From a virus: 64,000 nt of DNA. The notes under the pieces were generated by a model. The model did no database searches. It was not told the DNA's origin and saw nothing but the letters and a program-made list of their open reading frames with translations. The stretch covers positions 5,073 through 69,072 of IMG/VR virus record IMGVR_UViG_3300036770_005874; one strand, given 5' to 3'. Positions 41,124 through 58,750 of this stretch are shown one piece after another. The position numbers and the translations under genes were made by a program. The first letter of the stretch is position 1. Every line of letters begins with the position of its first letter.

Positions 41124-41776
41124 TGACCGTCTTCTTGTTGGACAAATTCACGCTTGAAGGAGCGCTGAACGGCAGCCTGCCTGAGATAGGCCGCCCATCA
41201 ACCACCTGGTCGGCTTCTTCCGGGATCAAGTCTGGTGGATACCTCGTCGCTCCAAACAATGCATCGTTCAACTGGTTCGGGGGAGAGATTCGTCTCCCAT
41301 CGCCAGGTGCTGCGTACTCGCACCTGACAGTGCGTTGCAAGTGGTTGTTCTCGACTGAGTCGCCCGTGCGGGCATATGCCGGGTTTGCCGAGGGCTGGTA
41401 CAAAACTGTGTTCGAGTACAACACGTCCAGTGGCGTGCCAGCGTGCACCGGCATACTCGGGCCTATAGATGCTGCTTCGATCAATCCCGATGGCGTGAAC
41501 GAGGTTGTGGTTTCTCTCAACTTCCAAGACAAGACTGCGATCACCTACATCAACGGTGTCCTCGTGCAGACCGGGGTTATGGCTTTTGGGGGAGGTGAGG
41601 GCAGCGCCTACCCCAGAGCCAGCCTGCTGTTCTTCGAGGTGGGAGGGACCACCGAGAGATTCAACGGTACGCTCCTGCGCTCCCAGCTGGACGAGCTTGA
41701 AGTAACAGATGAGCCATACGTCCCCCTGGTCGAGCCATTCTGGACCAACGTGGTTGGTGCGGTAGAGACGCCGTGA
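41123..41776 (+). CDS. Hypothetical protein
   Basis: TAATG coupling; C-terminal FWTNVVGA. Confidence 0.65.
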   Translation: MTVFLLDKFTLEGALNGSLPEIGRPSTTWSASSGIKSGGYLVAPNNASFNWFGGEIRLPSPGAAYSHLTVRCKWLFSTESPVRAYAGFAEGWYKTVFEYNTSSGVPACTGILGPIDAASINPDGVNEVVVSLNFQDKTAITYINGVLVQTGVMAFGGGEGSAYPRASLLFFEVGGTTERFNGTLLRSQLDELEVTDEPYVPLVEPFWTNVVGAVETP

Positions 41777-43968
41777 GGTTCATCTTCCGGCCACTGGTGA
41801 GCTATGCCGTCCATACCCGCAAGTGGTGTCGTGATCTCGCGCTTGGGCTCCCAGGGGTGGGGGTTGTTCGGCGAATCATCGATGGATTCCTGGTGCAGGT
41901 ATCCAAGCGCAACGACACGGCCGTCGCTGATGTCATAGACATGCCGGGTACCATCTTCGTGGCGGGCATGCAGTCGCATTGGTCGGAGGTCAGTGGTGGC
42001 GTGGAGACCTTCTATCCGCAGGGACGATGCGGATACATCCTGAGCTCTGCTGATGGCGAGCCTTACGCCGGCAACATGACCTACGCGCTTATGATGCCAG
42101 AGGGTGTCGCGTACTCAGGGTTCTTCGATATCGGCTGGCTGCAGCCGACCAAGTATCTCTCCGCCTCAGGGAAGCCGTGGGCTCCTTTCAGCTGCTGGAG
42201 TGTATCAACGCTACCTGGAAGCGGAGGCAGTCTCACCTACGCGATGGCGGGTGCAGACGGAGTCAACCAGTTCTCGGACCTGTATGTCGCACGTATGGCC
42301 CCTGATCCTCAAGTGGGCGACGGTGCATGGAGCCTGGCCGGTGAAGCGGTGGAAGCTGAGACGGCAAGCTGGCGCGTTCTGCATATAGCGCGCACCGACA
42401 TTGCGAGCGAGCCAGGAGAACACCCGCTGTCAGACTTTCCCGACGTTGCCGCTACGGGATACGGAAACGACATCGTTTATGTGGTCACCTGTTCCATCAA
42501 CAACCAGCCAGGTAGCAGCAGTGGAACACCTGCATGGGATGCAAGCAGGAATGGTTTGTCGGTGGCTAGAGTGGAGATCGTTGATGGAGAAGATGGTCCG
42601 CAGGCGAAGGTAGTAAAGCTCGGGCGCATCACCGCAGATGATCTTCTGCCACTGGACAGGCCTCAGCGCGTGATGTGGAGCATGGCACCGCCCAGGGCGT
42701 ACACCCTCGTCAGGCTGAACGGTGACTACAACATCAACAGCCCCCGCAGCGGCGTGTTTAATCCCAGCGCCTCTCTGGACTATGGCCCATTTGCCTCCTT
42801 CGGTGCATTCCAGAATCCCGGAGAGCCGAAGACTCGCTTTGTGTGGAGGCGGGCACCCCGCCTCGCTTGCGTGGGGCTCGCTGAAGGGGTGGACATACTG
42901 TTCACCGTTCAGACATCCCGAGAGCTGCCTCTGGTACAAGCAACATGGTCTTACTCGACGCCAGAACTGGTCACCGTCGAGGAGGATATCGCCGTGCCAG
43001 AGTACTCAGCGTCTGGGGACATAAGCCTAAATCACACGGCTACCTACCTGGTGCACGTTGCACTAGATGGCAGCAAAACCGTGCGCTGCATCCACAGGCA
43101 TACGTTCTCTGTTCACGACCAGACGCTGCGCGTTCTGCCGCGGGTTGAGTTCAGCCCGGTCCTGACGTACCGGGACTTAACAGTCGAAGGGGATGAGGTG
43201 GTTGAGGTATCGCGCTTTGTCTGCATTCGTGCAGAGAGCGGGGAGTATGCCGTCGGCAACCCAGATCCTGATCTGCGGCGCGTGCATCGAGCTGTTGCCC
43301 CAACCAAAGAGGGCGTGGATCTGGCGGTTATCTCAAGCGACGGCAGCTACGTCATTGCCGAGCTCGGTGACCTGTACCCGGTGAGCTATCCGTGTGTGGC
43401 TGACGGGATATCGGATGTCTCTTCGGATTCAGTGGATGGCGCCATACGGCGGCATGGATACGGCTGCGACAAGTTCCTATGGCCGGAGTACAGGAATGGC
43501 TATTCATCTGTAGCCCCGGCCTGCGTGTATGCCCCAGGCATGATTGCAGTAGTGGTTGCCACCAGGGCCGGGTTCTCCAGCGCATCTCAAATCGCCAAGC
43601 TAGCTGTGATCCGGGTCCGCGACGGTGAGCTTGTGCGGCTTTCCGATTTTGAGCTGCCGTTTGTGGTCAGTAACGCCTCCGGAGATGCAGATCAGTGGAA
43701 CGTCACTTGTGTGGAAGAGGGCGCAGTCGATGAGGACGGTGAGCTGACGCGCTACGCCAAGTTGTTGCTCTCCAAGGTAGGACGCAGGGTGCCGTCGATT
43801 CTTTATCGGGCTGATGATCTGAGCACACTGAGAAGTGTTGGCGCTTGGGGGTTGATAGGTCAGAACTACCTCAGGGGCCCAGCCTACTACCTTGGCTCTC
43901 CTATCGCGCCAGCAAGAGCGGGGCGCACCACTGGGCGTAGCTTTCTTGCGGGGAAGTCGGTGCAGTAA
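41773..43968 (+). CDS. Large hypothetical protein (possible receptor-binding)
   Basis: GTGA overlap; beta-rich, atypical codon usage. Confidence 0.65.
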   Translation: MRFIFRPLVSYAVHTRKWCRDLALGLPGVGVVRRIIDGFLVQVSKRNDTAVADVIDMPGTIFVAGMQSHWSEVSGGVETFYPQGRCGYILSSADGEPYAGNMTYALMMPEGVAYSGFFDIGWLQPTKYLSASGKPWAPFSCWSVSTLPGSGGSLTYAMAGADGVNQFSDLYVARMAPDPQVGDGAWSLAGEAVEAETASWRVLHIARTDIASEPGEHPLSDFPDVAATGYGNDIVYVVTCSINNQPGSSSGTPAWDASRNGLSVARVEIVDGEDGPQAKVVKLGRITADDLLPLDRPQRVMWSMAPPRAYTLVRLNGDYNINSPRSGVFNPSASLDYGPFASFGAFQNPGEPKTRFVWRRAPRLACVGLAEGVDILFTVQTSRELPLVQATWSYSTPELVTVEEDIAVPEYSASGDISLNHTATYLVHVALDGSKTVRCIHRHTFSVHDQTLRVLPRVEFSPVLTYRDLTVEGDEVVEVSRFVCIRAESGEYAVGNPDPDLRRVHRAVAPTKEGVDLAVISSDGSYVIAELGDLYPVSYPCVADGISDVSSDSVDGAIRRHGYGCDKFLWPEYRNGYSSVAPACVYAPGMIAVVVATRAGFSSASQIAKLAVIRVRDGELVRLSDFELPFVVSNASGDADQWNVTCVEEGAVDEDGELTRYAKLLLSKVGRRVPSILYRADDLSTLRSVGAWGLIGQNYLRGPAYYLGSPIAPARAGRTTGRSFLAGKSVQ

Positions 43969-44042: not shown

Positions 44043-45821
44043 ATGTTCGGCGTTCCCGGCTACAAAAAGACCCCCGGCGGTAAGATCGAGGGGCCTGGTA
44101 CTGGCACTTCAGATTCGATCCATAAAGCTGTTCAGGCCGGCACTTACATCATGCCTGCGGACTCGACCAGAGAGATTGGTGAGCGGAATTTGGCTGGGCT
44201 CGGGGTTCCTGGATACCAGGGTAAAGAAGTGTCGGTAAATTTGAGCAAAGGTGAGTTCGAGCTCACTCCTGGGCAAGTGCATGCCGTTGGTGTGCAGGCT
44301 CTGGACGCCATGAAGCAGGCGACGCACAAACCCACCGGCCGAGGTGTTCCGCGCAAGGAGCTTTTCTTCGCCGACGGTGGCCTGGTTGAAGACCCGCAGA
44401 AAAAGCGACTCACCGGTCCAGGTCTACAGGCCATGGGAACTCAGGCGGTCCAGGCCGCACGGCAGGCCGCGGTGTCGCCTGTGACCCAGCAGAAGGCTGG
44501 TCGGGGTGTTCCCGGGTGGCAGACGTTGAGGGATGGCCTTGCCGGTGGCGCAAAGGCGCTGGTTGGCGCAGCTGCAGTGCCGCATGCAGCTGTGGCTGAT
44601 GCCGTGCGCAATACCGCGACCCTCGCAACCGGTGGCGACCCCGACACCCTTGAGGGTGGCCGTGCGAAGTACCGTGATATGGCGGTCGGTACCACCCAGG
44701 AAGGGCTGGATCAGGCTGGCACGGCCGCGCAGACTTTCCGTGAGGCAGGCCGGGAGGCACTCGGTGCCCAGCCCCTGGCCTCGGCCCAGCAATCCTCAGT
44801 CGCTCCACCAGCAGCACCCGCTGCGCCGGTAGCTGGAGCTGCAGCAGCGCCTGCTGAAGCATCAGCACCTGCTGGTCGTGGTGCGCCAGGCTGGCAAGGG
44901 ACTGGCATTGGGGCTGACCGCCAGGGCGGCGAGATTGCCATGCGGCAGGGCGCAAGCGGCGTGCCGGAGTTCACCAACGAGGCGGCGACGCCGGGCGCGG
45001 TATCCGCTGGCCGCGGTGTTCCCGCTCCAAGTTCTCAGCCTTCTGCAAGCTCTCAGCCGCGCCTCGGCGTGCCTGGGTATGGTTCTGCCGCGAACGTAGG
45101 CAACGGTGTGGGCACCTTCAGCCAGGCCGAGGCGGGCAGCTCACAGCTGGCCCTGGATCGCTTCGAGCGCGCCAACCAGGAACGTGGGCGCATGGTTGAG
45201 CAAGCCCAGGCCGGCGAACTCGGTAACAACGGTGGCCGGCTGACTGTGGTGCGAGACAGCTCCCGCACTCCGACCCTGCAGGAGCGTCGCTTGGGCCGAC
45301 ATGAGGCACAACTGGCCCAGACCGAGGCACTACGATCCCGCACGTCCAACGAATCTGGGGAGTCTGCAGTCCGCACTGCCGCCGAGCACCAGCGCATGCA
45401 AACCGAGCAGCTCAACCAGCAGCGGCTGGGCCAGCAGATTGAGGAGGGCGAAGTCGCCGCGGTTGATCGCCAGCGGCTGGAGTCGCTGCGCGCGGCCATT
45501 GCCGACCCGAACACCAGCGAGCAGGAACGCAATGCTGCGCGCCAGGCCTACAACGTGCTTGCCACCCAGGCGAAGGACCGCTACATCACGCAGGATGTCG
45601 TAATGGGGCAGGGTAACAATGGTCCGGTGATTGGTCGCCAGGTGATCGACGTCACGACTGGTCAGCCTGTAAGTGGGAAGGCGCAGGCTGAGTCAGACCA
45701 ATTCGCAGGTGGGCCTCCTGCTGCTGCCGTTGCGGCCCTACTTGAGAATCCCAATCGCGCTGCAGAGTTCGATAAGAAGTTCGGGCAGGGGGCAAGCGCA
45801 AGGTATCTCGGCGCTGGTTAG
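44043..45821 (+). CDS. Putative DNA ejection protein
   Basis: GPGTGTSDSI N-terminal domain, A/G/Q-rich; position before giant protein. Confidence 0.65.
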   Translation: MFGVPGYKKTPGGKIEGPGTGTSDSIHKAVQAGTYIMPADSTREIGERNLAGLGVPGYQGKEVSVNLSKGEFELTPGQVHAVGVQALDAMKQATHKPTGRGVPRKELFFADGGLVEDPQKKRLTGPGLQAMGTQAVQAARQAAVSPVTQQKAGRGVPGWQTLRDGLAGGAKALVGAAAVPHAAVADAVRNTATLATGGDPDTLEGGRAKYRDMAVGTTQEGLDQAGTAAQTFREAGREALGAQPLASAQQSSVAPPAAPAAPVAGAAAAPAEASAPAGRGAPGWQGTGIGADRQGGEIAMRQGASGVPEFTNEAATPGAVSAGRGVPAPSSQPSASSQPRLGVPGYGSAANVGNGVGTFSQAEAGSSQLALDRFERANQERGRMVEQAQAGELGNNGGRLTVVRDSSRTPTLQERRLGRHEAQLAQTEALRSRTSNESGESAVRTAAEHQRMQTEQLNQQRLGQQIEEGEVAAVDRQRLESLRAAIADPNTSEQERNAARQAYNVLATQAKDRYITQDVVMGQGNNGPVIGRQVIDVTTGQPVSGKAQAESDQFAGGPPAAAVAALLENPNRAAEFDKKFGQGASARYLGAG

Positions 45822-46147
45822 CGGCTGTCGAACTGGTCGAAGAAGTTCTCATTGTACAAGCGATCACAGGCCAGACGGATCTGGTATGCGGCGGTGCGGC
45901 TCCGGGTATCACCAGACTGATCTAGAGCACAGTCGGCACCAGAGTCGTATCCAAGCATGCCGCGGCCGTCCCCCTGCGTCACAGCTTCCAGACCACCAGG
46001 GTGATCGGCTCGGCATACCTGGATTGCAGCTGCCGCTGCTTGGTCATTCTCCAGCCCCGGCAGCTTGTCCAGCAGGCAGGTGGCGTAGTTGGAAGCGCTC
46101 GCCAAGCCCGGCAAGCTCAATAGAGTAAGCATAAGAAATTTTGTCAT
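45818..46147 (-). CDS. Exported four-cysteine protein (VF_A0006-like) moron
   Basis: Signal peptide, NYATCLLDKLPG..ND.AA, C-terminal ACDRLY.ENFFDQFD. Confidence 0.75.
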   Translation of the reverse strand: MTKFLMLTLLSLPGLASASNYATCLLDKLPGLENDQAAAAAIQVCRADHPGGLEAVTQGDGRGMLGYDSGADCALDQSGDTRSRTAAYQIRLACDRLYNENFFDQFDSR

Positions 46148-46227
46148 TGCGCCATCCTTGATTTTCATGATCTAGCGGCTATTCATTAAATGGCCATAAG
46201 CCATGATCGTAGCTGAGGGACCAGACG

Positions 46228-47286
46228 ATGCGTGCTCCTGCCTTTGCTTGTTTTTCAGTGTTCTTCAGCGGATGCACATTGTTCCCTAGTGAGCCTGACT
46301 TCCCTTGGGCATCTAAGCCTATCTGTGCAGACAATAACGTGGCGGTGGAATGCACCAGCAAACATGTCGCTGATGCCTACAAGGATGCGCGTGTTTATTG
46401 CCTGAACCTGGCAAAAAGCTACGAAGACGGCAGCGATCTAGTCAACTCGTCCACCTTCTTTATCGGCGGAATTGGCACGCTTGCAGGGGCAGTTTTCTCC
46501 CCGCTTGCGGGGGGCAGCGCCAAGACCGCTTGGTCTGGTCTCTCTGGTTCGGCCAATGCTCTTCAAACCGGGGTAAATACGAGCTTCTCTAATGCCGTCA
46601 ATGCGCGGCGGCGAGCGGAGATTGCCAACGCGGGAACTGCTGGCAAGGACGCAGTGGTGCAGGGAACAGACCCAACTAAGAGGGTGCTGGCGGCAATCGA
46701 TTTAGCGTATGACTGCAAGATGGCAATTGGCAGGGCGGATGTAGCTGCGGCAGAAGCCTTGAATAAAATCCAATCCGGGGCGCCGATTAAGTCAGAGAGT
46801 CCGTCTGCAACAGTTGACCCTGTCGGGACTAAGGTTGATGCCGAGAAAAGCGCCGAAGAAGCTGCAAAGCCGGCTGCTGATGCTGCTACGAAGGTGGCTA
46901 TCGATCCGAGTGCCACTGTCAAGGATAAAGCAACAATTGAAAAGCTCCGTGGCCAAATTGCGGAAGCTGCCGCTGTAGCGGCTGCACCAGTTGCTGCGGC
47001 AGCCGCTACAGACGTGGCCAGAAAGGCATCGGTAGTTGGGGGCGAGACTCCAAGCCTAAACCAGACTCAGGCAGCTGCAACGGTTGCGGCGCAAATGGCG
47101 GCAGAGCCTGTGGCGAGGGCAGCAGCAGAAGAAAAAGCAGCTGAAATTCTCACCGGTAAATCTCAGGAAGTTAAGAACGCGGTGCTGGAGACTACTGTTC
47201 CTGCCGCATCCGCAGCCGCAGAGGCCGCTGCCAAGGCTGCCGCGAGTACGGCGACTGCGCCGGCGCAGCCTGTAATCACTCCGTAG
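46228..47286 (+). CDS. Putative lipoprotein with Ala-rich C-terminus (moron)
   Basis: Lipobox FSGC; lower GC. Confidence 0.7.
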   Translation: MRAPAFACFSVFFSGCTLFPSEPDFPWASKPICADNNVAVECTSKHVADAYKDARVYCLNLAKSYEDGSDLVNSSTFFIGGIGTLAGAVFSPLAGGSAKTAWSGLSGSANALQTGVNTSFSNAVNARRRAEIANAGTAGKDAVVQGTDPTKRVLAAIDLAYDCKMAIGRADVAAAEALNKIQSGAPIKSESPSATVDPVGTKVDAEKSAEEAAKPAADAATKVAIDPSATVKDKATIEKLRGQIAEAAAVAAAPVAAAAATDVARKASVVGGETPSLNQTQAAATVAAQMAAEPVARAAAEEKAAEILTGKSQEVKNAVLETTVPAASAAAEAAAKAAASTATAPAQPVITP

Positions 47287-47429
47287 AAATCTAAGGTATG
47301 AGCGTGAGTGTAGTTAGGGGCCTATTGCCTTAGGCCCAGTTCTGACTCATTCAATACTCAACACAAAGGCTGAGTCGGACAGGCCAAGTTTTTCTCGGCG
47401 GCTTTTCGTCTTGATCGGTATTTGACCCG

Positions 47430-47472
47430 CCCCCCTGTAGGGTTCGTTAGTTTTTCCTGTTTCCAGTGACAT
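47430..47472 (+). promoter_or_regulatory. Late-promoter motif copy 7 (giant protein)
   Basis: CCCCCCTGTAGGGTT-22bp-TGACAT. Confidence 0.75.
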
Positions 47473-47515
47473 AGCTCCATCGCGCGCCGTGGTGGTGCTG
47501 CTGCTGGAGAGCGGG

Positions 47516-50500
47516 ATGAGTAACTACTTCGACCAGTTCGATGAGGCTGATGGCAGCCCGAAGTCTGCCAACTACTTCGACCAGTTCGACGAGAAGCCCG
47601 CAGCGTCGAAAGGCAGCTCCGATCAGAACACCTCCACCCTCGGTGACCTGGGCACCGACCTGAAGCGCGGTGTGCAGCAGCTTCCCGGCGTAGCTACCGG
47701 CCTTGCCGATGTGGTTGCCGGCGGTCTAACCAATCGCCGCTTCGCCGACGACCTGGCCGACCAGGCTGGTGAGCTGACCGGTTTCCAGCCAGAGAAGTGG
47801 GCCGAGGAGGCGCGCCAGGAGTACAGCCCCGAGCGGCAGGCTGCCCAGGCCGAGGTCAACCAGGCCTGGGAGGAAGGTGATGCGCTTGATGTTACCGGCG
47901 CTTATGTTCGCAACCCCAGAGTGATTGCAGGTCTTGTAGCCGAATCCGTTCCGCAGATGCTGGCCGGCGGCGCCATAGGTCGCGGTGCGCTGGCTGCTGG
48001 CCGGGCTACTGGCGCGATTTCTGCACCGGCTACGGCCATTCAAGCCGCGCGCCAAGCTGCCACAGCCGGCGCCGCCGGCGAGGGCGCAGTGGTCGCTGGC
48101 TCGACCATGAACCAGATCGATGAAGAGGTTGAGCCTCAGCGCGCTGCAGCTGCAGCTGTCGGAGCAGGTGTCGGCACGGCGCTGCTCGGCCGCGCTGGTG
48201 CTGCAGTTGTTCAGCGACTCGGGCTCACCGACGTGGATACTGCTATTGCCGGCGGCGTGCAGCGCACTGCAGCCGAGGCGCCAGGCCTTGGCCGTCGCCT
48301 GGCGGGTGGTGCCGCAGTCGAGGGCCTGCTCGAGGAGTTGCCGCAATCCGTTCAGGAGCAAATGTGGCGAAACTTCGCCGAGAACAAGGCACTGATGGAT
48401 GGCACGGGTCGCGCTGCGGTTGAGGGTGCCCTGGCCGGCAGTGTAATGGGCGCAGGCATCAACGTGCTCCCTGCACGCAAGCCGTCCGAGCAGATGGGCA
48501 TCGACCCAAACGCGGGGCCGCTGTCGGCTGCTGCCGCCACTGCGGTGGATGGCGGGCCGGCCGGTACACAGAGCCCTGTGATGGAGGCAGCCCGTCGGGC
48601 GCTGCTGGCTGGCGCGCCGCAGGAGCAGGCATCGGCGCCTTACCAGCCGGCCGATTTGCAGACCGCTGTGGCGCAGCAGCTGTTCCGCACCGAGATTGAC
48701 GAGACCAACCCGGGCGCGCTGCGCTTCTACCGCCGCGACAACGACCTGCAGAGCTGGGTCGAGGTACCGGAGCAGGAGGCGCTGGCCGCCGCCCAGGCGC
48801 GTATCCAAGAGGCTGAGCAATTCGGCGAGGATCCGCTGGGCCAGCGCTCGCCTCAGCAGCTGCTACCGGAGGTGGCGGCCGAGAGCGGCGCTGGTCAGGT
48901 CGAGGATGTGGAGGCCCTGCCGGCGTTCGAGCAAGGCGAGACCGTGGTCTGGGCGAACAAGGATTTCGACTACCCGGTTGAATTCCTCGGCTTCGAGGCG
49001 TCGCCTGGCGCCGATGGCCGCCAGTACGCGCGAGTGCGTGTGGCCGGGCGCGAAGGGCATGTGCCGGCCGCTGAGCTGCAGGCTCAGCCCGAGCAGGCGC
49101 CGCCGCTGCCAACTGTGGAGATGGACAGTGGCCCCCAGCAGACGGAGCAGGTGCAGGCCACGCCGGCCGCCGGCGATCCGGACTATGAGTACCGTGTGCA
49201 GAAGAACGGGCGCCCATTCAAGGGCCAGGGCGACGTGCGTCTGCGCAAGGCCCTCAACGATGCCATCGCCGCCGGCGAGAATCCGATGGTCGTGCAGCAT
49301 GAGGGTGGCTGGGCCGTGGCTGTGCCGCGCGCACCAGCCGAGCCTGCTGCGCCGCTGGCCTTGCCGGCGCCGAACACCATGGTGGTGGACGCCCAGGGCA
49401 ACACCCAGCGTGGGCCGGTCGAACCGTTCGTGGAGCCCGCTGCCAGGCTTCGGCCGCTGGGAGGTCCTGGCATGGAGCGCCAGGCGCCGCCGGCCAGCAG
49501 GGTCGACAAGGAGGCGAACGAAGCCGCTACCTCGCCGGCCAACGAGCTGCCGGAGCCGACTGAGGCGCAGAAGGAGGCCGGCAACTACCGCAAGGGCCAT
49601 GTGCGCGTGGCTGGCCTTGATATCTCGATCGAGAACCCGCGAGGCTCGGAGCGCGCCGGGCGCCGTCCCGATGGTAGCGAGTGGCGCCACACGATGAGCG
49701 ACCACTACGGCTACATCCGCCGTACAGAGGGCGCCGATGGCGAGCAGGTCGATGTTTACCTGGGCCCACAGGGAGATAGCGGCCAGGTGTTCGTCGTTGA
49801 CCAGCTGAACCAGGGCGATGGCAGCTTCGACGAGCACAAGGTGATGATCGGCTTCCCGAGCCAGGAGGCGGCGGTCTCGGCCTACCGGAGCAACTTCGAC
49901 GCCGACTGGAAGGTCGGGCCTGTCACCTCCATGCCCATGGATCAGTTCAAGTCCTGGCTGAAGGGGGGCGATCTGCGCAAGCCGCTTGCTGCGCCGGCGT
50001 CGGCGCAGGAGCAACGCGCGGCGTCCAAGGGGCCGCGGCGCCGGGTCGATCGTGAGCGTGACTCCCTGCTGCAGGCTGTCATCCGTCTCGGCGGCATCAA
50101 GACTGAGTGGCGCCAGGACACCACCGGCGAGAGCAAGGGGAATCGCCATCTTCCGGGCGTCGGTGCCCTCTGGAGCGACAAGACCGGGACCAGCATCGAC
50201 GACATGGCCAGTCAGCTGGATCAATACGGCTATCTGCCTGCCGGCGAGATGGACAACCTGGGTGGTGTACCATGGCTGCAGCAGGCGATCCGCGACGAAC
50301 TGGCCGGAATCCGCTACTACGCAGCAGAGTCCGCCGCCCAGCAGGAGCAGATGGAGCGTGAGCTGCAGCAGCGCTACGCTGATGAGGCTGAGCGGGAGCG
50401 GCAGCAGTTCGAGGCGTACCTGGCTCAGGTGGAAAGCGAGTATGGTGCGGCCCTGGCCAACAGGTTGCGCGAGCACCAGCAGGCTGCCGAGGCCCTGGAC

Positions 50501-53500
50501 AATCAGTTGCTGGCCGAGGCACAGCGCTACGAGGATGAGTATGACGAGCGAGAAGACAGTCGAGCCGAAAGCCTTGAGTACGGACCAGGAGCTGCTGGCC
50601 AAGCAGCTGTGGAAGGAGAGTCCTTACGGCAAGCTGATGACGGACAAGATAGCCAGCAGCGAGCGCCTGCGGGATCTGGCCAAGGCCAAGCTGGAGAACC
50701 AACCGGCTTCAGCCTCGAACAGCAAACCGAAGAAAGCCTGAGGGAGCAGGCCGCCCAACAGCAGGCGGCCGAGAAGGCAGATGCCGAGGCGCAACGCCAG
50801 GCCGAGCAGAAGGCGCAGGCTGACCGCGATCGCGCCGACTTCACCCTCTCTGGGTCTGATCGTCCCGCCGATGTCGCCGAGGCGCGCGGCCAGAACGATA
50901 TGTTTGCGCCACGCACCCGGGGCGACGCCAAGAAGATCGAGGATTTTGGCGAGAAGCTGCTGGGAGCGCGGAAGTTCCAGACGTTCAGCCAGCGCATGGA
51001 TGAAGCCAAGGCGCTGGACGTGAAGGCTGTTCCCCTATCGAAGTCCTGGCCTGAGCCGGATTACCAGGCGCTGCTGGCCGATGGCGCTGATCCCTGGGCG
51101 GTAGGTTTTCTGCGCGCGGCTCGCGAAGAAGTCCCGAACAAACCCAGCAAGGGCTGGAAGGTCGAGCGCTGGGCAGAGCAAGTGACCAAGCTTCGCGACA
51201 TGGCCACCAAGGTCGCAGCCGATCCCGACTATGCAGTGAGGGTGAAGGCTCGCGCCGGAGATGCGACGGGGCTCGATAAGGGATTCCTCGGCCGGGTCGA
51301 GCTCTACGAGCGCTTTGGTCACGACGTGCCGCTGAAAGGCATGAAGCTTCACTCCAGCTACTTCAGCCTGTATCGCGGCGAGAAGGACGTGACGAAGTGG
51401 ATCGTCGATGGCCCGAACGAGCGTAACCGGCTGAGCAACTGGCCTGTCGAGTACGCCGTAGCCGATACCAAGGAGGCCGTGATCGAGGCTTTCGCCAAGG
51501 TGCACGCCAAGCTGAAGGCGAAGGGCGAAGAGGCCGACGTCGGCCCGAAGATCCGCTTCGATATCTTCAGCGATCGCTACACCAAGTCGGTGTTCATCGG
51601 TAAGAAGAACGGCAAGCGCGTGGTGAAGATGAAGAACTTCCCCGACGTGCAGGCCGCGCGCGACTACCTCAAGAGCAACCAGGCCGAGCTGGAAGCCCAG
51701 TACGAGCGGATGAAGCAGCTGCCGGCGGTGCGCGGCGAGGACAACGCACCGCGAGTAGGTTCCGACTACCGTAACGGGCTGGACGTGACGCCTGAGCTGT
51801 TCAGCGAGACATTCGGCTTCCGCGGGGTGCAGTTCGGCAACTACGTTGAGGGGCGTCGCCGGCAGCAGGACCTCAATGACGCCTTCGATGCCCTGATGGA
51901 CATGGCGGGCGTGCTGAATATTCCGCCCAGGGCGCTCTCGCTAAATGGCGAGTTGGGACTGGCGTTCGGCGCGCGCGGGACTGGCGGGCCGGACCCGGCC
52001 ATGGCGCACTACGAGCGTGACCAGGTGGTGATCAACCTGACCAAGGCGAAGGGAGCAGGCTCGCTTGGCCATGAGTGGTGGCACTCCCTGGACAACTACC
52101 TCAGCCGGGCGCGTGGGGCACCTGACGGCATGCTGAGCGAGGCCGCCTATGAGCGTGGCACCGGCGTACGGCCGGAGATCGTCGAAGCCTTTGCCAACAT
52201 CAACAAGGCCATCAATCGCACCCAGCTGCGCCAGCGCTCCGAAAAGATGGACGAGCTGCGCACCAAGGACTATTGGTCTACCAAGCTGGAAATGACTGCC
52301 CGCGCCTTCGAGAGCTACCTGATCGCGAAGCTGAATGAGGGCGGTGTGCGTAGTGATTACCTGGCCAACGTCGTCAGCGAGCAGGCGTTCGAGCTGGAGG
52401 ACTCCTATCCATACCCGACTGCTGCCGAGATTCCAGAGATCCGCGCCGCCTACGACGAGCTGTTCCGGGTGATCGAGACCCGCCAGGACGACAAGGGAAA
52501 TGTTGCCCTGTATCGGCTTAATCCCGACGAGCCGATGCTGCGGCTCAATCCTGGTAGTGCCAAGGGTATTCCGCCTGTCAGCGCCAAGGCGATCGCCCAG
52601 CAGGTGCAGGAGGCTACCGGTCTCCGCGCCCTAGTGGTCGACACCGAGTTCGCTCTACCCATGCCAGTGCTTGAGCAGGTGCTGCGTGACGGCGCCGTGG
52701 GTAGGGTCGCTGGCGTGTACCACAACGGCCAGGCCTACCTGGTGGCGTCGAACCTGCAGAGCGCCAAGCATGCTCAGGAGGTTCTGCTGCATGAGGTCGT
52801 AGGCCACCAGGGCGTGCGCGCCGTGCTGGGCAGCCGCACTGCCAAGGTGATGGAGCAGATCTATGTCGACATGCCGGCCGCAGATCGGCGCGAGCTGGAG
52901 GAGCGTTACGCTGGTCAGCTCGAAAACCTCAGCGAGCAGGAGCAGCGCATCACCGTCGCGGAGGAGTACGTAGCCCACCTGGCGGAAACCAATCCGCAGC
53001 ACAGCCTGATCCAGCGCCTGGTGGCCATGGTCCGAGCCGCTCTGCGGCGTTTGTTCGGCGCTACCGGCGCGCTGAGCTGGACCAACGCCGATATTGTCGC
53101 GCTTCTGGCTGACTCCCGGCGCATGGTCTCCGGTAGCGTTCAGACTTCTGTGCCGGCGCCCCAGTCGGCAGCAGCGGTCAACTACCGGCAGAAGCCGGTG
53201 GAGCCGCGGCCTGTTGCTCTGCTGCATGTGGAGGAGATGGATGTAACTGATGCCATCGATGAGCTGGCTGGGCAGGATGGCACGCAGGCCTTCGCGCGTA
53301 GCCTGTACCGCGCCAGGGGCACCGACTCGCCATTCTTTCAGCGCTGGTTCAAGGGCTCCCGTATGGCGGATCGAACCGGCCGCCCGATTGCCTTCTACCA
53401 CCGCAGTTTCGGCGAGAAGGACCGTTTCGACGACACTCGCTTGGGCGGCAAGACCGGCACTGGCACCGCGGCGTTGGGCCATTTCCTGGCACGCCAGGAC

Positions 53501-56464
53501 GTTGGCAACGTCGAGCGATATGGGCCGGTCGTCGAGCGCTTCTTCGTGCGCATGCGCAAGCCGAAGGTTGTCAGCCAGCAGCAATTCGAGGCGATGGGCG
53601 ACTGGACGGATGCCCAGATCAAGGCCTATCGCAAGACGACGATGGAGCAGGGGCACGATGGCCTGTACATCCTGGGGCTGGACTGGCCGGTGGTGTTCGA
53701 GGGTAAGAACATCAAGGCGGTGCGGAACAGCGGAACCTTCGACGAGAGCGACCAGGTGCGCTACAGCCTGACCCAAGACGCCGGCGACCTGTTCAGCCGC
53801 TTTGGCCGGCGCCCGGCCGACCTGAATGATCCTTTCGCTGAAGAGAACCGGCGCCTGCGCGAGCAGGACAAGACTCTGTGGAGCCGAGCCAAGCAGCAGT
53901 TCCGCCGGCAATTCGCCCCGGGCGGGCTGCTGCCGGAGGCGGTTTTCTCGGAGAAGATCCGACGCGACAGCGAATTCCAAGCGGTCGAGTTCGATGTGCG
54001 ACACCTGGCTGGCGGGCTGGAACAGGCGGTACAGGCAGATTTCGGTTCCCCGATCGACCAGTTGCCAGAGGCGCAGATGAAGCCACTGGCGGAAGCGCTA
54101 GCGGGCCGGGTAGACCCGGCGCTGCCGCAGCGCACTCGCGAGGCGGTGGTAGCCATGCGGCAGTACATCGACACGCTGTCGGGCGAGTACATCGGCATCC
54201 TGCAGCAGCAGGTGGAGCAGAACCTGAAGGACGCAGACCCGGCTCTGGTGGAGACCATCACCCGCAACCTGGGCAGCTACGTGCATCGTTCCTACCGTGC
54301 CTTCGATGATGCGAAGTGGTTCGAGAAGGTGCCGACTGAGACCCTGAATGCCGCGCGCCGCTACCTGGCCAACCAGTACGCAGGCCAAGGCGCAACCTCC
54401 CAAGAGGCCCTGCGTATGGCCGACGTGAAGGTCAACGAGCTGCTCAAGACCGGCACAGCCTATAGCTCGATGGAGTCGATGATTGCCGAGGGCATGCTCG
54501 GCGCCAAGGACCTGAGCGTGCTGATCAAGCGGAAGGAGATCGCGCCGGAGATCCGCGCGCTGCTGGGGGAGTACATCGACCCCCGGGTGAACTTCGCGAA
54601 GTCCGCCACCAAGATGGGTCGCCTGATCTGGAACCAGCGCTTCCTCGATCGCACCCGCGCGCAGGGCATGGGCGCCTTCCTTTTCGAGGAGGGCGATCGT
54701 CCAGCTGGCGCCACCGAGCAGCTGGCCGGGGAGCAGTCAGACACCTATGCACCTCTGAACGGTCTCTGGACCTTCCCTGAGGTGGCCCAGGCCTTTCGCG
54801 ATGCCATGGGCAAGGAGCAGATGAGCGATCTGTATCGCGCCGTCGTGCGGATCAACGGCATGGTGAAGTACGGCAAGACCGTGCTCAGTCCAACCACGGC
54901 GATGCGTAACTGGCAGTCGGCGCTGTTCTTTAGCCTGGCAAACGGCCACTTCGACCTGACCCAGATGAAGAAGAGTCTGGCAGCTTTCCGTGAGCAGGTT
55001 GCCCAGAACGCCACCGGCGAAGACCTGACCTACCTGCGCAAGCTGAAACAGCTGGGCGTGGTGTATGACACCCCCTACGCCGGTGAGATGGCGCGCCTGC
55101 TTGAGGACGCTAGGTTGGACGAGCTGCTGGACGGCAAGACTGGCACTGGCCTGAAGTGGTTGCGCAAGGTCAACCAGGCGGCCCAGGGCTTCTACTCGTT
55201 CGGCGATGACTTCTGGAAGATCATCGGCTTCGAGAATGAGAAGGCCGGCCTGCAGAAGGCCGGTTTCAGCGAGGCTGAGGCCGAGCGCATGGCCGCCGAG
55301 CGAATCCGCAATACCTACCCGACCTACTCGATGGTTGGTCGCGGCATCGACTGGCTGCGCCGTTTCCCGCTGATGGGCACCTTCGTCAGCTTCCCGGCCG
55401 AGATCGTCAGGACGACGGTGAATATGATGCGGCTGACGTCCGCCGATCTGAAGAGCGGCAACCCTGAGTTGCAGGCACTCGGTCGTCGGCGCGCGGTCGG
55501 CATGGCCATGGTTTCGGCCGGCTTCTACGCGCTCTCGGCCATGACTGCCGCGGCGTTTGGTGTGGATGACGAAGAGGAGGAGGCTCTGCGCGATCTGGCG
55601 CCGGACTGGCAGAAGAACTCCACCTTCCTTTACGCAGGCCGCGACGCTGACGGCAAGCTGCGCTATTTCGATATGAGCTTCCTTGATCCCTATGGGTACT
55701 GGAAGCGTCCTCTGACAGCGATGATGCGCGACCAGCCGTGGGAGAAGGCTGCAGCCAGCGGCCTGGGTGACATGTTGGCTCCGTTCCTGGGCGCCGACAT
55801 CGCCGCCGGCGCGCTGTTTGAGGTGATGGCGAACAAAAAAGGGAGCGGCGGGCTCGTCTACCAAGAGAACGGCGATCCGGTCGATCAGACCTTGGATATC
55901 GCCAATCACCTGCGCAAAGCACTGCAGCCTGGATTCGTGAGTAACGCCGAGCGCTTGGTGCTGGCTGGGCAGGGGGTACGAAGGGAGGGTAGTGGGCAGG
56001 CCTACGACCTGCGCGATGAGGTGGTGAGCCTGCTGGGCTGGCGCGCATCGACAACCGATGCCAGAACCGCGCTGCACTATCGTGCATACGAGTTCGGCGA
56101 CGCTCTGGCCGAGTCGCGGCAGGTGCTGACCCGCGAGCTACGCAGCCAGAACAAGGTGGGCGAGGAGGACATCCGGGATGCCCGCGAAACGGCCGAGCGG
56201 CAGTACCAGCAGGCTTTCCGTGAGATGAATCGTCTGGTGCAGGCTGCACAGACGGCGGGGATGAGCCGCCCGCAGGTCATGCAGACCCTGCGGATGAGCG
56301 GTGTTTCGTCGGCTGACGTCGCGCAGCTGATGCGGGGAGAGGCTCCGCGCTTCCGGCTTGGGCCAACTGCCATGGGGCGTGCAGTGCAGCAGGCTCGCCT
56401 GGTGGGTGGGCAGGCGCATGCAGAGGAGGTGGCCAGGCGATACCGGCTGGCTATGAGTCTCTAG
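47516..56464 (+). CDS. Large polyvalent virion/ejection protein (~2980 aa)
   Basis: Inorganic-pyrophosphatase-like (IENPRGS..HYGYI..DGEQVDV), LPD1-like (VQFGNY, LAFGARG, HEWWH, EMTARAFE), zincin HEVVGH and ART-like (FYHRS..GHF) segments. Confidence 0.88.
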   Translation: MSNYFDQFDEADGSPKSANYFDQFDEKPAASKGSSDQNTSTLGDLGTDLKRGVQQLPGVATGLADVVAGGLTNRRFADDLADQAGELTGFQPEKWAEEARQEYSPERQAAQAEVNQAWEEGDALDVTGAYVRNPRVIAGLVAESVPQMLAGGAIGRGALAAGRATGAISAPATAIQAARQAATAGAAGEGAVVAGSTMNQIDEEVEPQRAAAAAVGAGVGTALLGRAGAAVVQRLGLTDVDTAIAGGVQRTAAEAPGLGRRLAGGAAVEGLLEELPQSVQEQMWRNFAENKALMDGTGRAAVEGALAGSVMGAGINVLPARKPSEQMGIDPNAGPLSAAAATAVDGGPAGTQSPVMEAARRALLAGAPQEQASAPYQPADLQTAVAQQLFRTEIDETNPGALRFYRRDNDLQSWVEVPEQEALAAAQARIQEAEQFGEDPLGQRSPQQLLPEVAAESGAGQVEDVEALPAFEQGETVVWANKDFDYPVEFLGFEASPGADGRQYARVRVAGREGHVPAAELQAQPEQAPPLPTVEMDSGPQQTEQVQATPAAGDPDYEYRVQKNGRPFKGQGDVRLRKALNDAIAAGENPMVVQHEGGWAVAVPRAPAEPAAPLALPAPNTMVVDAQGNTQRGPVEPFVEPAARLRPLGGPGMERQAPPASRVDKEANEAATSPANELPEPTEAQKEAGNYRKGHVRVAGLDISIENPRGSERAGRRPDGSEWRHTMSDHYGYIRRTEGADGEQVDVYLGPQGDSGQVFVVDQLNQGDGSFDEHKVMIGFPSQEAAVSAYRSNFDADWKVGPVTSMPMDQFKSWLKGGDLRKPLAAPASAQEQRAASKGPRRRVDRERDSLLQAVIRLGGIKTEWRQDTTGESKGNRHLPGVGALWSDKTGTSIDDMASQLDQYGYLPAGEMDNLGGVPWLQQAIRDELAGIRYYAAESAAQQEQMERELQQRYADEAERERQQFEAYLAQVESEYGAALANRLREHQQAAEALDNQLLAEAQRYEDEYDEREDSRAESLEYGPGAAGQAAVEGESLRQADDGQDSQQRAPAGSGQGQAGEPTGFSLEQQTEESLREQAAQQQAAEKADAEAQRQAEQKAQADRDRADFTLSGSDRPADVAEARGQNDMFAPRTRGDAKKIEDFGEKLLGARKFQTFSQRMDEAKALDVKAVPLSKSWPEPDYQALLADGADPWAVGFLRAAREEVPNKPSKGWKVERWAEQVTKLRDMATKVAADPDYAVRVKARAGDATGLDKGFLGRVELYERFGHDVPLKGMKLHSSYFSLYRGEKDVTKWIVDGPNERNRLSNWPVEYAVADTKEAVIEAFAKVHAKLKAKGEEADVGPKIRFDIFSDRYTKSVFIGKKNGKRVVKMKNFPDVQAARDYLKSNQAELEAQYERMKQLPAVRGEDNAPRVGSDYRNGLDVTPELFSETFGFRGVQFGNYVEGRRRQQDLNDAFDALMDMAGVLNIPPRALSLNGELGLAFGARGTGGPDPAMAHYERDQVVINLTKAKGAGSLGHEWWHSLDNYLSRARGAPDGMLSEAAYERGTGVRPEIVEAFANINKAINRTQLRQRSEKMDELRTKDYWSTKLEMTARAFESYLIAKLNEGGVRSDYLANVVSEQAFELEDSYPYPTAAEIPEIRAAYDELFRVIETRQDDKGNVALYRLNPDEPMLRLNPGSAKGIPPVSAKAIAQQVQEATGLRALVVDTEFALPMPVLEQVLRDGAVGRVAGVYHNGQAYLVASNLQSAKHAQEVLLHEVVGHQGVRAVLGSRTAKVMEQIYVDMPAADRRELEERYAGQLENLSEQEQRITVAEEYVAHLAETNPQHSLIQRLVAMVRAALRRLFGATGALSWTNADIVALLADSRRMVSGSVQTSVPAPQSAAAVNYRQKPVEPRPVALLHVEEMDVTDAIDELAGQDGTQAFARSLYRARGTDSPFFQRWFKGSRMADRTGRPIAFYHRSFGEKDRFDDTRLGGKTGTGTAALGHFLARQDVGNVERYGPVVERFFVRMRKPKVVSQQQFEAMGDWTDAQIKAYRKTTMEQGHDGLYILGLDWPVVFEGKNIKAVRNSGTFDESDQVRYSLTQDAGDLFSRFGRRPADLNDPFAEENRRLREQDKTLWSRAKQQFRRQFAPGGLLPEAVFSEKIRRDSEFQAVEFDVRHLAGGLEQAVQADFGSPIDQLPEAQMKPLAEALAGRVDPALPQRTREAVVAMRQYIDTLSGEYIGILQQQVEQNLKDADPALVETITRNLGSYVHRSYRAFDDAKWFEKVPTETLNAARRYLANQYAGQGATSQEALRMADVKVNELLKTGTAYSSMESMIAEGMLGAKDLSVLIKRKEIAPEIRALLGEYIDPRVNFAKSATKMGRLIWNQRFLDRTRAQGMGAFLFEEGDRPAGATEQLAGEQSDTYAPLNGLWTFPEVAQAFRDAMGKEQMSDLYRAVVRINGMVKYGKTVLSPTTAMRNWQSALFFSLANGHFDLTQMKKSLAAFREQVAQNATGEDLTYLRKLKQLGVVYDTPYAGEMARLLEDARLDELLDGKTGTGLKWLRKVNQAAQGFYSFGDDFWKIIGFENEKAGLQKAGFSEAEAERMAAERIRNTYPTYSMVGRGIDWLRRFPLMGTFVSFPAEIVRTTVNMMRLTSADLKSGNPELQALGRRRAVGMAMVSAGFYALSAMTAAAFGVDDEEEEALRDLAPDWQKNSTFLYAGRDADGKLRYFDMSFLDPYGYWKRPLTAMMRDQPWEKAAASGLGDMLAPFLGADIAAGALFEVMANKKGSGGLVYQENGDPVDQTLDIANHLRKALQPGFVSNAERLVLAGQGVRREGSGQAYDLRDEVVSLLGWRASTTDARTALHYRAYEFGDALAESRQVLTRELRSQNKVGEEDIRDARETAERQYQQAFREMNRLVQAAQTAGMSRPQVMQTLRMSGVSSADVAQLMRGEAPRFRLGPTAMGRAVQQARLVGGQAHAEEVARRYRLAMSL
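50541..50741 (+). CDS. Overprinted small protein (66 aa) inside giant gene
   Basis: GAGGA RBS; GC3-rich codons switch from the main frame to this frame over exactly this span. Confidence 0.6.
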   Translation: MTSEKTVEPKALSTDQELLAKQLWKESPYGKLMTDKIASSERLRDLAKAKLENQPASASNSKPKKA

Positions 56465-57730: not shown

Positions 57731-58750
57731 ATGACCACCACCCCATTGCACAAGCAAGTGTTAAGTCGTTATTCCAGTGTACAAGCTTGGCTGGAGCTCT
57801 TGGGTAATCTGGGGCGTGCGCCGGCCACCCTTGACGCCTATGGCCGTGCCCTTGCGCATTACTTATTGCATTGCGAAGGGAGTGGGCTGAAACCCGAATC
57901 CGCGACATTCGAACAAGTCACGCTCTACATCCGTGAGCTGCTACCTGGCGCAAAGAGCGCGGTGGCGAATTCAACCTTGCACCAGCGGCTTACTGCTATC
58001 CGGTTGTGGTACGACCACCTCGTTTTTCAGGGTCTTTGCGAGCACAACCCCGTGCCCCGCGGACAGCATGGTCGGCTGGCCCAAGTGCCTGGACATGGAG
58101 GGTTTGTCAGGGGCTTGCTCCCACGGCTGATTAAGTTGCCAGACATTCCCACCGATGAGCAGTGGCGACACTTTCTCAGTATTGCGGCCAGGTCGTCTAT
58201 CCGTGATCGACTAATGCTGTCGTTGGCGTATTTCGGGGCTCTTCGCCGTGCCGAGTTGGTGGCCTTGCGTATTGAGGATTTAGACGTTGCACACCGACTG
58301 ATCTCGGTGCGAGCGGAAACGACCAAAGGCAAACGCAGCCGCGTCGTGTGCTACAGCCCAGACATTGCACCTGTCTTGATAGAGCATCTACATGCTCTTC
58401 GCGGCGCTGGCTGGATGCGAGGTTCGTTGTTTCGATCAGCATCAGATCGTAATCGAGGCTCGCCACTGTCCCGTTGGGCGTGGAGTAAAACGGTTGAAGG
58501 GTGGGCCAAGGAAGCGAAACTATCGCACCTGAGCACTCATACCTTTCGCCACCTTCGGCTTACCCATCTGGCCCGTGCGGGCTGGAAGCTCCATGAACTG
58601 ACCACGTATGCTGGACATCGAGACCCCAAAACCACTTTGATTTACCTGCACCTATCTGGCGCGGATTTAACCGCAAAGATGGCGCACTCCGTCGGCAGTC
58701 TCGATGCTCGGATGTTCTGTGAACTCTTTGGGTCTGAGGCATTGCTATGA
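57731..58750 (+). CDS. Tyrosine recombinase 1
   Basis: ALRRAEL, TKG, HTFRH, AGH, Y. Confidence 0.92.
   Translation: MTTTPLHKQVLSRYSSVQAWLELLGNLGRAPATLDAYGRALAHYLLHCEGSGLKPESATFEQVTLYIRELLPGAKSAVANSTLHQRLTAIRLWYDHLVFQGLCEHNPVPRGQHGRLAQVPGHGGFVRGLLPRLIKLPDIPTDEQWRHFLSIAARSSIRDRLMLSLAYFGALRRAELVALRIEDLDVAHRLISVRAETTKGKRSRVVCYSPDIAPVLIEHLHALRGAGWMRGSLFRSASDRNRGSPLSRWAWSKTVEGWAKEAKLSHLSTHTFRHLRLTHLARAGWKLHELTTYAGHRDPKTTLIYLHLSGADLTAKMAHSVGSLDARMFCELFGSEALL

Follow-up and report, generated by a model that had tools for sequence, protein, structure and literature searches.

Entry exclusion aimed at ejection proteins is known from phage P22, in which the prophage gene sieA lies beside the ejection genes and its product blocks DNA injection by relatives only. 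According to the accessible part of that work, escape from SieA maps to C-terminal parts of the ejection proteins gp16 and gp20, the gene is accessory (22 of 66 P22-like phages carry it), and SieA types of about 25% identity share a target range; the authors find the basis of a recognition that survives the diversity of ejection proteins hard to understand (PMC10883804). In N4 and DEV, as far as the available sections describe it, ejection of a giant protein follows that of smaller ejection proteins, one of which, encoded by a neighbouring gene, is physically coupled to it (PMC13434306, PMC11445570); the ejected giants of both phages are noted there as cysteine-free (PMC11445570). On the host side, the accessible text on HXS presents a four-gene periplasmic gatekeeper of broad spectrum, which undergoes radical-SAM maturation and is proposed to hold DNA electrostatically (PMC13128918). 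Here we analyse a window of 64,000 nucleotides (positions 5,073 to 69,072 of the IMG/VR virus record IMGVR_UViG_3300036770_005874), in which a small antisense gene encodes a predicted exported four-cysteine protein between two genes of ejection type. The C-terminal tail of this protein repeats a motif that the neighbouring giant virion protein displays twice at its N-terminus, and across loci both vary together with the C-terminal module of the protein encoded on the other side, that of open reading frame (ORF) 44043. With a probability of roughly 0.58, we read the small protein as a decoy in the periplasm that would fill the docking domain of an arriving phage and thereby block ejection.

The giant polyvalent internal virion protein (P0004, 2982 amino acids (aa), no cysteine; 47516..56464, plus strand) opens with M-S-NYFDQFD and, 8 residues further on, continues with A-NYFDQFD, so that its sequence holds motif copy 1 at residues 3-9 (47522..47542, plus strand) and copy 2 at residues 19-25 (47570..47590, plus strand). 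The small protein (P0001, 116 aa; 45818..46168, minus strand), recognized by its translation, its homologues and an AlphaFold2 (AF2) model, ends in the hypervariable tail NENFFDQFDSR (45821..45853, minus strand), with the motif NFFDQFD at 45827-45847. The beginning of the giant and the end of the antisense signal-peptide protein are thus as the earlier note on this DNA, made from the letters alone, had read them. ORF 44043 (P0003, 592 aa, phrog_11341; 44043..45821, plus strand), whose homologues are LKA5_058 and F116 gene 58, is largely of low complexity and lacks cysteine. Its stop overlaps that of the small ORF, the two genes being convergent, and, the moron island aside, it is the last gene before the giant. 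The last approximately 35 residues (45714..45818, plus strand; ...AAEFDKKFGQG...) constitute a putative motif receptor, here called the docking module, of class 'a'; the class of this module tracks that of the motif.

The first hint of a general relationship came from phage LKA5, whose small ORF ends with a KPWEEY motif and whose giant opens with KPWEEF twice; the peptide differs from that of the window, and the relationship is the same. We assembled 88 loci, namely 62 viral and 23 genomic ones retrieved with the family profile together with LKA5, Atpa001 and the window, and the tail repeats the twin motif of the neighbouring giant across them in about 14 unrelated classes: NFFDQFD, DLFDEFG, LAxEFGL, GLFDDLK, PWxxY/F, DWExG, WWKx, KPFxGxLD, IDxFL, FSYExAxG, DxFGG, FDPxxA, NPFxDP and NPFxKFH. 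The motif and domain classes are regular expressions defined post hoc, and the class-free tests are independent of them. One such test scored each tail, by 7-mers, against the first 130 residues of each ORF of at least 900 aa, for 49 distinct combinations from 58 usable loci (at the other 30, no such ORF start was in view or the tail was not usable). Cognate pairs scored 30.7 on average and non-cognate pairs 17.5, and none of 10,000 permutations reached the observed sum. Under the post-hoc classes, tail and giant agree in 37 of 39 distinct pairs, and the tail also matches at a locus outside these 39 (L045) where the giant is broken into shorter ORFs. Together with a correlation of 0.79 given below, these results make the covariation of the two proteins, expected by the earlier note, overwhelming. 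Related phages are non-independent samples in all of the covariation tests reported here.

The same loci reveal a third co-varying element. Where closely related phages carry unlike motifs, DNA homology is lost directly after the core of the small ORF for 160-290 bp, which exceeds the need of the tail; the extra length is the 3' end of the convergent counterpart of ORF 44043. The last approximately 35 residues of these counterparts sort into classes, each of which corresponds to one motif class: tail and C-terminal domain agree in 58 of 58 classed cases, with five further domains unclassable, and giant and domain in 35 of 35. Related motifs pair with related domains: classes B and C, both of EFG type, go with one related type of domain. 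By comparison, the segment just before the domain exists in alternative versions that assort freely with the domain class. Each domain class is a discrete type that stays conserved even where the protein bodies carrying it are unrelated, and the break-points fall precisely on the edge of the domain. Over 33 loci, r was 0.78 between tail and domain, 0.79 between tail and giant motif and 0.80 between domain and giant motif. None of the other stretches compared exceeded 0.26: neither the core of the small protein, nor three segments ahead of the domain, nor the next protein upstream, nor four segments further along the giant. A Mantel analysis of 59 loci gave r=0.82 between tail and domain (partial r 0.81; 0 of 2000 permutations); the value of 0.80 between domain and giant motif at the 33 loci is likewise a Mantel r. 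A simple charge-swap rule linking motif and domain within class 'a' was judged by eye, found inconsistent and dropped. The guess of the earlier note that the C-terminus of ORF 44043 might be the binding site therefore holds in so far as this C-terminus co-varies with both motif carriers, and its role as the site of binding is suggested by the pattern as a whole: one peptide on two proteins, with a co-varying module of other sequence, is the signature of two ligands sharing one receptor.

This pattern bears on a different account, in which motif and tail are ligands of a host periplasmic protein and the ORF 44043 domain co-varies by adjacency only. The Tol and Ton boxes of colicins, which are import epitopes, provide the model for it. 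The motifs would suit such a role, being short and aromatic-acidic and lying in disordered segments, and the coding sequence of the domain invariably adjoins that of a motif carrier, either the tail or the start of the giant. However, a single class can be found in phages of Pseudomonas as well as of Comamonas/Delftia-type hosts, and one host group harbours many classes, which is the opposite of what a host ligand predicts; and discrete domain classes on unrelated bodies, break-points at the domain edge and the pairing of related motifs with related domains in B and C all speak against covariation by adjacency. We consider a host ligand improbable.

At the DNA level, the two motif copies of the giant form a direct repeat of 24 nt (47522-47545 and 47570-47593, 96%), and the tail motif (45827-45847) matches 47570-47590 (21 nt, 95%) and 47522-47541 (20 nt, 95%) in inverted complementary orientation. 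The earlier note had these positions right. Its inverted repeat could be taken for a device of inversion or gene conversion, or for a relic of moron insertion, as it flanks a segment of 1.7 kb and an in-frame fusion after inversion is formally possible. Yet when positions at which tail and giant motif share a residue are compared over 37 loci, the codon is the same in 101 of 193 cases, and the codon usage of the giant predicts 95.4. In LKA5, the shared peptide is written in different codons, in an AT-rich small ORF and a GC-rich giant, and each of the approximately 14 unrelated classes keeps the match. Nor is there an invertase near the segment; the integrases, an adjacent pair of tyrosine-integrase-like ORFs at 57731-58750 (339 aa) and 58747-60912 (721 aa), stand at the prophage end (57731-60912). 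The codon agreement at expectation and the codon differences in LKA5 rule out inversion, gene conversion and an insertion relic as the origin of the match, and we find a DNA-level cause hardly credible. Because codon agreement is at the expected level, the inverted repeat is a by-product of codon bias and does not stand as a feature in itself: the match lies at the protein level, and the DNA identity has no separate meaning.

Chance is likewise refuted. A 7-residue match between short acidic-aromatic peptides could arise by accident in a single genome, but the degenerate 15-mer that encodes FDQFD occurs three times in the 64-kb window, always at the tail or twin motifs, where 0.02 occurrences are expected and none of 100 shuffles reaches three, and the permutations and classed pairs described above point the same way. 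We give accidental resemblance next to no weight.

The relationship between module and motif extends beyond the small gene. A search with the N-region of the giant yielded 80 further loci, at which 57 giants carry twin N-terminal motifs (score of at least 26), compared with 4 of 240 shuffles, and 14 of the 80 loci have the small gene within 7 kb. At 43 distinct giant loci without the small gene, motif and domain are still correlated (r=0.88, partial r 0.85, 0 of 2000 permutations), and these loci include classes never seen beside the small gene. As the pairing holds without the small gene, it appears to be a docking code of virion proteins that the small protein copies; judged from these genomes, the system consists primarily of the domain-motif pair, to which the small gene has been added. 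The accessory status of the small ORF is plain: it is absent in F116 and H66 and present in LKA5, phiC725A, E220, F1Pa, Atpa001 and JBD90, and at 58 distinct loci it has a prophage-encoded position beside ejection-type genes. Gene order varies with lineage. LKA5 has the domain directly against the giant, with the small ORF 2.2 kb off; in the window type, it is the tail that adjoins the domain, and the start of the giant lies 187 bp (L046) to approximately 6 kb from the small ORF, with unrelated cargo between.

In the genomes that have it, the small ORF is the one constant part of a moron island that is otherwise hypervariable. Among the loci collected (L004-L088), these islands are a hotspot for unrelated cargo, including antirepressor-like genes, PIN/HicB-type (toxin-antitoxin-like) pairs and, in L064, a C5-methyltransferase-like gene with neighbours. 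At two loci (L064 and L065, ~10001), the small ORF is truncated, with 48 and 32 residues matched, while the flanking domain-motif pairing persists; these small ORFs look like decayed decoys.

The small protein comprises a signal-peptide-like N-terminus (approximately residues 1-25), a helical core (26-105) and the variable tail (106-116); translation more probably begins at the second ATG (Met8, 46147), preceded by an AAGGA box. It belongs to the family PF28034, 'VF_A0006-like four-cysteine': PF28034.1 is the precomputed Pfam match for P0001 and for 51 of 52 listed homologues, and the Atlas clusters nearest to P0001 carry the same family name. The NCBIfam model NF041602 (VF_A0006_fam) gives 45.8 bits (E 3.9e-12), below its curated cut-off of 65, so that P0001 is related to the curated subfamily and stands outside it. 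An alignment of 51 of the 53 listed proteins including the query, from which one near-duplicate and one 76-aa fragment were left out, shows C31, C52, C80 and C101 to be invariant, with A23 and A25 (A-x-A) preceding the mature N-terminus. The conserved core ends in C-x-R-L-Y-D/N, beyond which the sequences are unalignable; members of Delftia/Comamonas type have virtually identical cores and quite different tails. In the AF2 model (mean predicted local distance difference test (pLDDT) score 82), the core reaches 88-98 and the last residues approximately 52, consistent with a disordered tail on a confident core. These features suggest a periplasmic protein. A Foldseek search of the model against the PDB returned nothing at E <=0.001 (best 6.5), a wide VIA-align search gave a best Z of 3.1 and no fold was assigned, and neither Pfam, AF2 nor the fold searches revealed a signalling or enzymatic domain in the 116-aa form. 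PADLOC-DB 2.0 held no match for P0001, P0002 (the companion gene described below) or P0003 at E <=0.1. The full profile search with the family recovered 475 representative clusters at E <=1e-3.

Several further observations concern this family. Core residues 25-55 and 74-104 look like an internal duplication of a C-x20-C helix-loop-helix unit, and the NCBIfam model aligns to the core of P0001 in two stretches. Long members of 200-390 aa (P0067, P0072, P0087, P0088, P0128, P0166 and P0169) carry the motif in a linker right after the core and are extended by a conserved domain at the C-terminus (HYxxIYxAHPDAD...W...), with a cysteine pair (C...MTDADYxACG) at its end. The small ORF is unannotated in several deposited phage genomes (LKA5, at L001 3989-4339; phiC725A; E220; F1Pa), and in LKA5 the stretch is annotated with predicted promoters and a terminator only. 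At an LKA5-type locus (L054), one RNA-library run among four, all of them contig sets, yielded a 201-nt contig within the small ORF, but the flanking late genes were also covered.

For the giant, Pfam matches to InPase (190 bits), LPD5 (116 bits) and LPD1 (63 bits) all exceed their cut-offs, and ART-PolyVal (20.5 bits) falls below its cut-off of 31.2. With several effector and LPD domains in one giant polypeptide and late-gene surroundings, it agrees with the definition of polyvalent proteins (Iyer et al. 2017). Its PHROG matches are to virion structural protein, DarB-like and N4 virion RNA polymerase (vRNAP) N-region families; residues 115-396 match the N4-type vRNAP N-region family phrog_2206 (E 1.8e-10) and residues 2228-2946 match phrog_22602, 'virion structural protein' (E 3.3e-81). 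It is 33% identical to the LKA5 giant over 298 aa, and the H66 homologue (gp60) is a virion protein verified by mass spectrometry in the H66 record. The accessible part of PMC4819975 likewise treats the F116-group giant as a virion protein, with a C-terminal part homologous to T7 gp16/IVP-D. The first motif copy lies at most approximately 5 residues from the initiator Met in 14 of 15 giants examined, and every classed giant N-terminus has exactly two class matches. A profile of the giant N-region found nothing below E 0.08 among solved structures. The annotated start of F116 gene 59 (L089 5340-5640, AY625898) is out of frame with an N-terminus of the LKA5 KPWEEF type and in frame further on, which suggests a frameshift or a sequencing error in an old record. 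In L012 and L013, the giants carry a composite twin motif, NFFDQFDPSTA[RK]P, in which class A overlaps class L, and tail and domain are of class A only.

The module of ORF 44043 was modelled with moderate confidence as three short helices (pLDDT 76-81). Sequence comparison of ORF 44043 with solved structures gave nothing below E 0.08; at E <=1, the sole Pfam match for P0003 and four upstream ORFs was a 14-bit SpoIIIAH hit, which we disregarded; and no similarity to T7 gp15, N4 gp51 or DEV gp72 was detectable. The likeness of this largely low-complexity protein to periplasmic-tunnel ejection proteins is one of syntenic position only. A co-fold of its C-terminal 93 aa with the mature small protein scored 0.22 at best against a mark of 0.32, in a run made without controls. 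Its low-complexity region contains approximately eight copies of a G-[VA]-P-[GREA]-[YWF...] motif (FGVPGY, LGVPGY, GRGVPGW, GRGAPGW and others), with analogous repeats in homologues (GF[ST]P in LKA5_058, PPSRGFG in L062), and these repeats could be a second set of linear docking motifs.

We propose that the approximately 35-residue module of the upstream protein binds the short linear motif displayed twice at the extreme N-terminus of the giant, and that module and motif are exchanged together as a specificity cassette, of which approximately 14 classes occur beside the small gene and more elsewhere. A protein of the ORF 44043 type would leave the capsid via the periplasm and catch the N-terminus of the giant by its module. 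The small gene, if expressed in the lysogen, would yield a Sec-exported, disulfide-bonded helical protein whose disordered tail would show one copy of the motif and sometimes two. Waiting in the periplasm, the decoy of the resident prophage would occupy the module of the cysteine-free upstream protein ejected by an incoming phage that shares its class. With the module taken, the giant would be unable to dock, the conduit across the envelope would stay unfinished and no DNA would enter. Such exclusion would be class-specific and re-programmable by a swap of approximately 10 residues. Support for the route through the periplasm comes from cysteine content: at 35 loci, a single cysteine is found among the 78,643 aa of the giants and none among the 17,995 aa of the domain-bearing proteins, whereas virion genes next to them do encode cysteine, with 11 in ORF 41773-43968. 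Since giant and domain protein are free of cysteine, the giant is reported in the virion and the N4 and DEV proteins are coupled, we infer that proteins of the ORF 44043 type exit through the periplasm.

Several features of the tails fit defence better than a role in the phage's own assembly. At one locus (L011), a class-I tail stands beside a class-M giant, and the giant's own upstream domain matches the giant; at others (L022, P0049, L050 and L063), the tail carries motifs of two classes in tandem; and distant long members keep the motif after the core. The antisense position in a low-GC hypervariable moron island we also count as a sign of defence. Nevertheless, covariation gives a shared specificity only and not the sign of the effect. 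The tail may engage the same docking module while the small protein serves as a periplasmic sensor or tether that reports or captures kin phage, for instance to set off a further response, or as a helper of their entry. The extra conserved C-terminal domain of the long members, with the motif in the linker, hints at coupling to another activity, and two class-G loci (L018 and L039) may co-reside. On the other hand, the 116-aa form is without a signalling or enzymatic domain, a resident prophage has no obvious gain from aiding a competitor, and heterotypic and bispecific tails fit blocking more simply. A sensor or helper seems unlikely to us.

Other points weigh against the decoy reading itself. 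Two pairs, L011 and L082, are mismatches between tail and giant, the latter in an apparent prophage remnant beside a uvrC-like gene. The constant adjacency of the domain to a motif carrier means that linkage or hitch-hiking could give part of its covariation. L018 and L039, whose record names share a prefix, are distinct loci of class G; should one cell harbour both, exclusion within a class is not absolute. A decoy would also have to displace the giant if docking has already taken place within the virion. That ORF 44043 is ejected is suggested by synteny and lack of cysteine, and the H66 homologue carries no virion-protein flag in the H66 record, unlike the giant. A scan of 45500-47700 found no sigma-70-like promoter for the small ORF at the scan threshold. 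In the available part of the DEV study, the tunnel protein binds the C-terminal part of the giant and not N-terminal constructs (PMC11445570), so that the nearest studied system uses another interface. On balance, the decoy reading of the earlier note is partly supported: the covariation on which it depended holds, and periplasmic location, binding, ejection of the upstream protein and exclusion are the steps that the genomic pattern makes plausible.

The window derives from an F116-like (Hollowayvirus-type) prophage, and F116, H66, LKA5 and relatives are the nearest phage records. The region lies within the late-gene block, downstream of head-closure, tail-fibre and virion-protein genes. The island that holds the small ORF and P0002 has a GC content of 0.47-0.58, compared with 0.65-0.71 in the flanks, and terminator-like sites in 45500-47700 are no more frequent than in shuffles. 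P0002, the companion of the small ORF in this island, is a lipoprotein-like moron (352 aa; 46228..47286, plus strand) with a lipobox-like FSGC followed by an Ala-rich C-terminal half. It has no Pfam, PHROG, NCBIfam or PADLOC match, and the islands of the other loci hold no homologue of it. It may be a second moron that acts on the envelope.

Taken further, these results raise the possibility that F116-like podophages assemble their ejection machine via a swappable peptide-domain address code of at least 15 classes, which a one-gene periplasmic decoy has weaponised; heterotypic and two-motif tails would then be aimed at other classes, and the diversity of classes would be the footprint of an arms race. 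For this broader picture we see somewhat less than an even chance. The nameless family PF28034 gains a function-level hypothesis, and the comparison of genomes points to a modular docking interface between two internal virion proteins that apparently had not been described before. It would also be a rare case in which the specificity of superinfection exclusion could be predicted from approximately 10 residues, the recognition rule being legible. If the proposal is true, this would be the first entry-exclusion system with a specificity that can be read, predicted and rewritten from sequence, and the code could serve for typing temperate podophages, for predicting against which phages a given prophage protects its strain, and for studying the sequence in which the steps of podophage ejection occur.

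Among known systems, SieA is the closest, and the earlier note was correct in recalling it as an injection-blocking neighbour of ejection genes. Like sieA, the small gene lies beside ejection genes and is accessory; SieA blocks injection, as is proposed here. SieA, however, is a polytopic inner-membrane protein with neither a soluble signal-peptide form nor a copy of a phage peptide, whereas here a tail of approximately 10 residues matches the partner of the proposed target. The ejectosomes of N4, DEV and T7 resemble the window in having a cysteine-free giant virion protein, and the window giant matches the N4-type N-region; the accessible parts of the papers cited above describe no twin N-terminal peptide or 35-residue docking module there. 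HXS, too, has a periplasmic protein effector proposed to stop DNA entry; unlike it, one small gene would act here, by peptide mimicry and on a narrow spectrum. The VF_A0006 four-cysteine family (PF28034, NF041602) has the same signal peptide and four cysteines in two C-x20-C units. The translocation epitopes of colicins and pyocins are short disordered peptides by which an invader mimics a host ligand and competes for its binding site in the periplasm, as the TolB box does with Pal; there, the invader mimics the host to enter, whereas here the resident would mimic a subunit of the invader to exclude it. Polymorphic toxin-immunity and cohesin-dockerin pairs likewise combine conserved scaffolds with discrete specificity classes that can be exchanged, the break-points falling at the edges of modules; here, there is no toxin, the pair is structural, being made of virion proteins, and a third party copies one side. 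A literature search, with subscription journals and supplements outside its scope, found no paper that deals with PF28034/VF_A0006 or its function, with exclusion by a protein that mimics a peptide, or with the twin motif. Exclusion of entry by targeting ejection proteins is known, and the principle of recognition through a copy of the peptide is to our knowledge undescribed.

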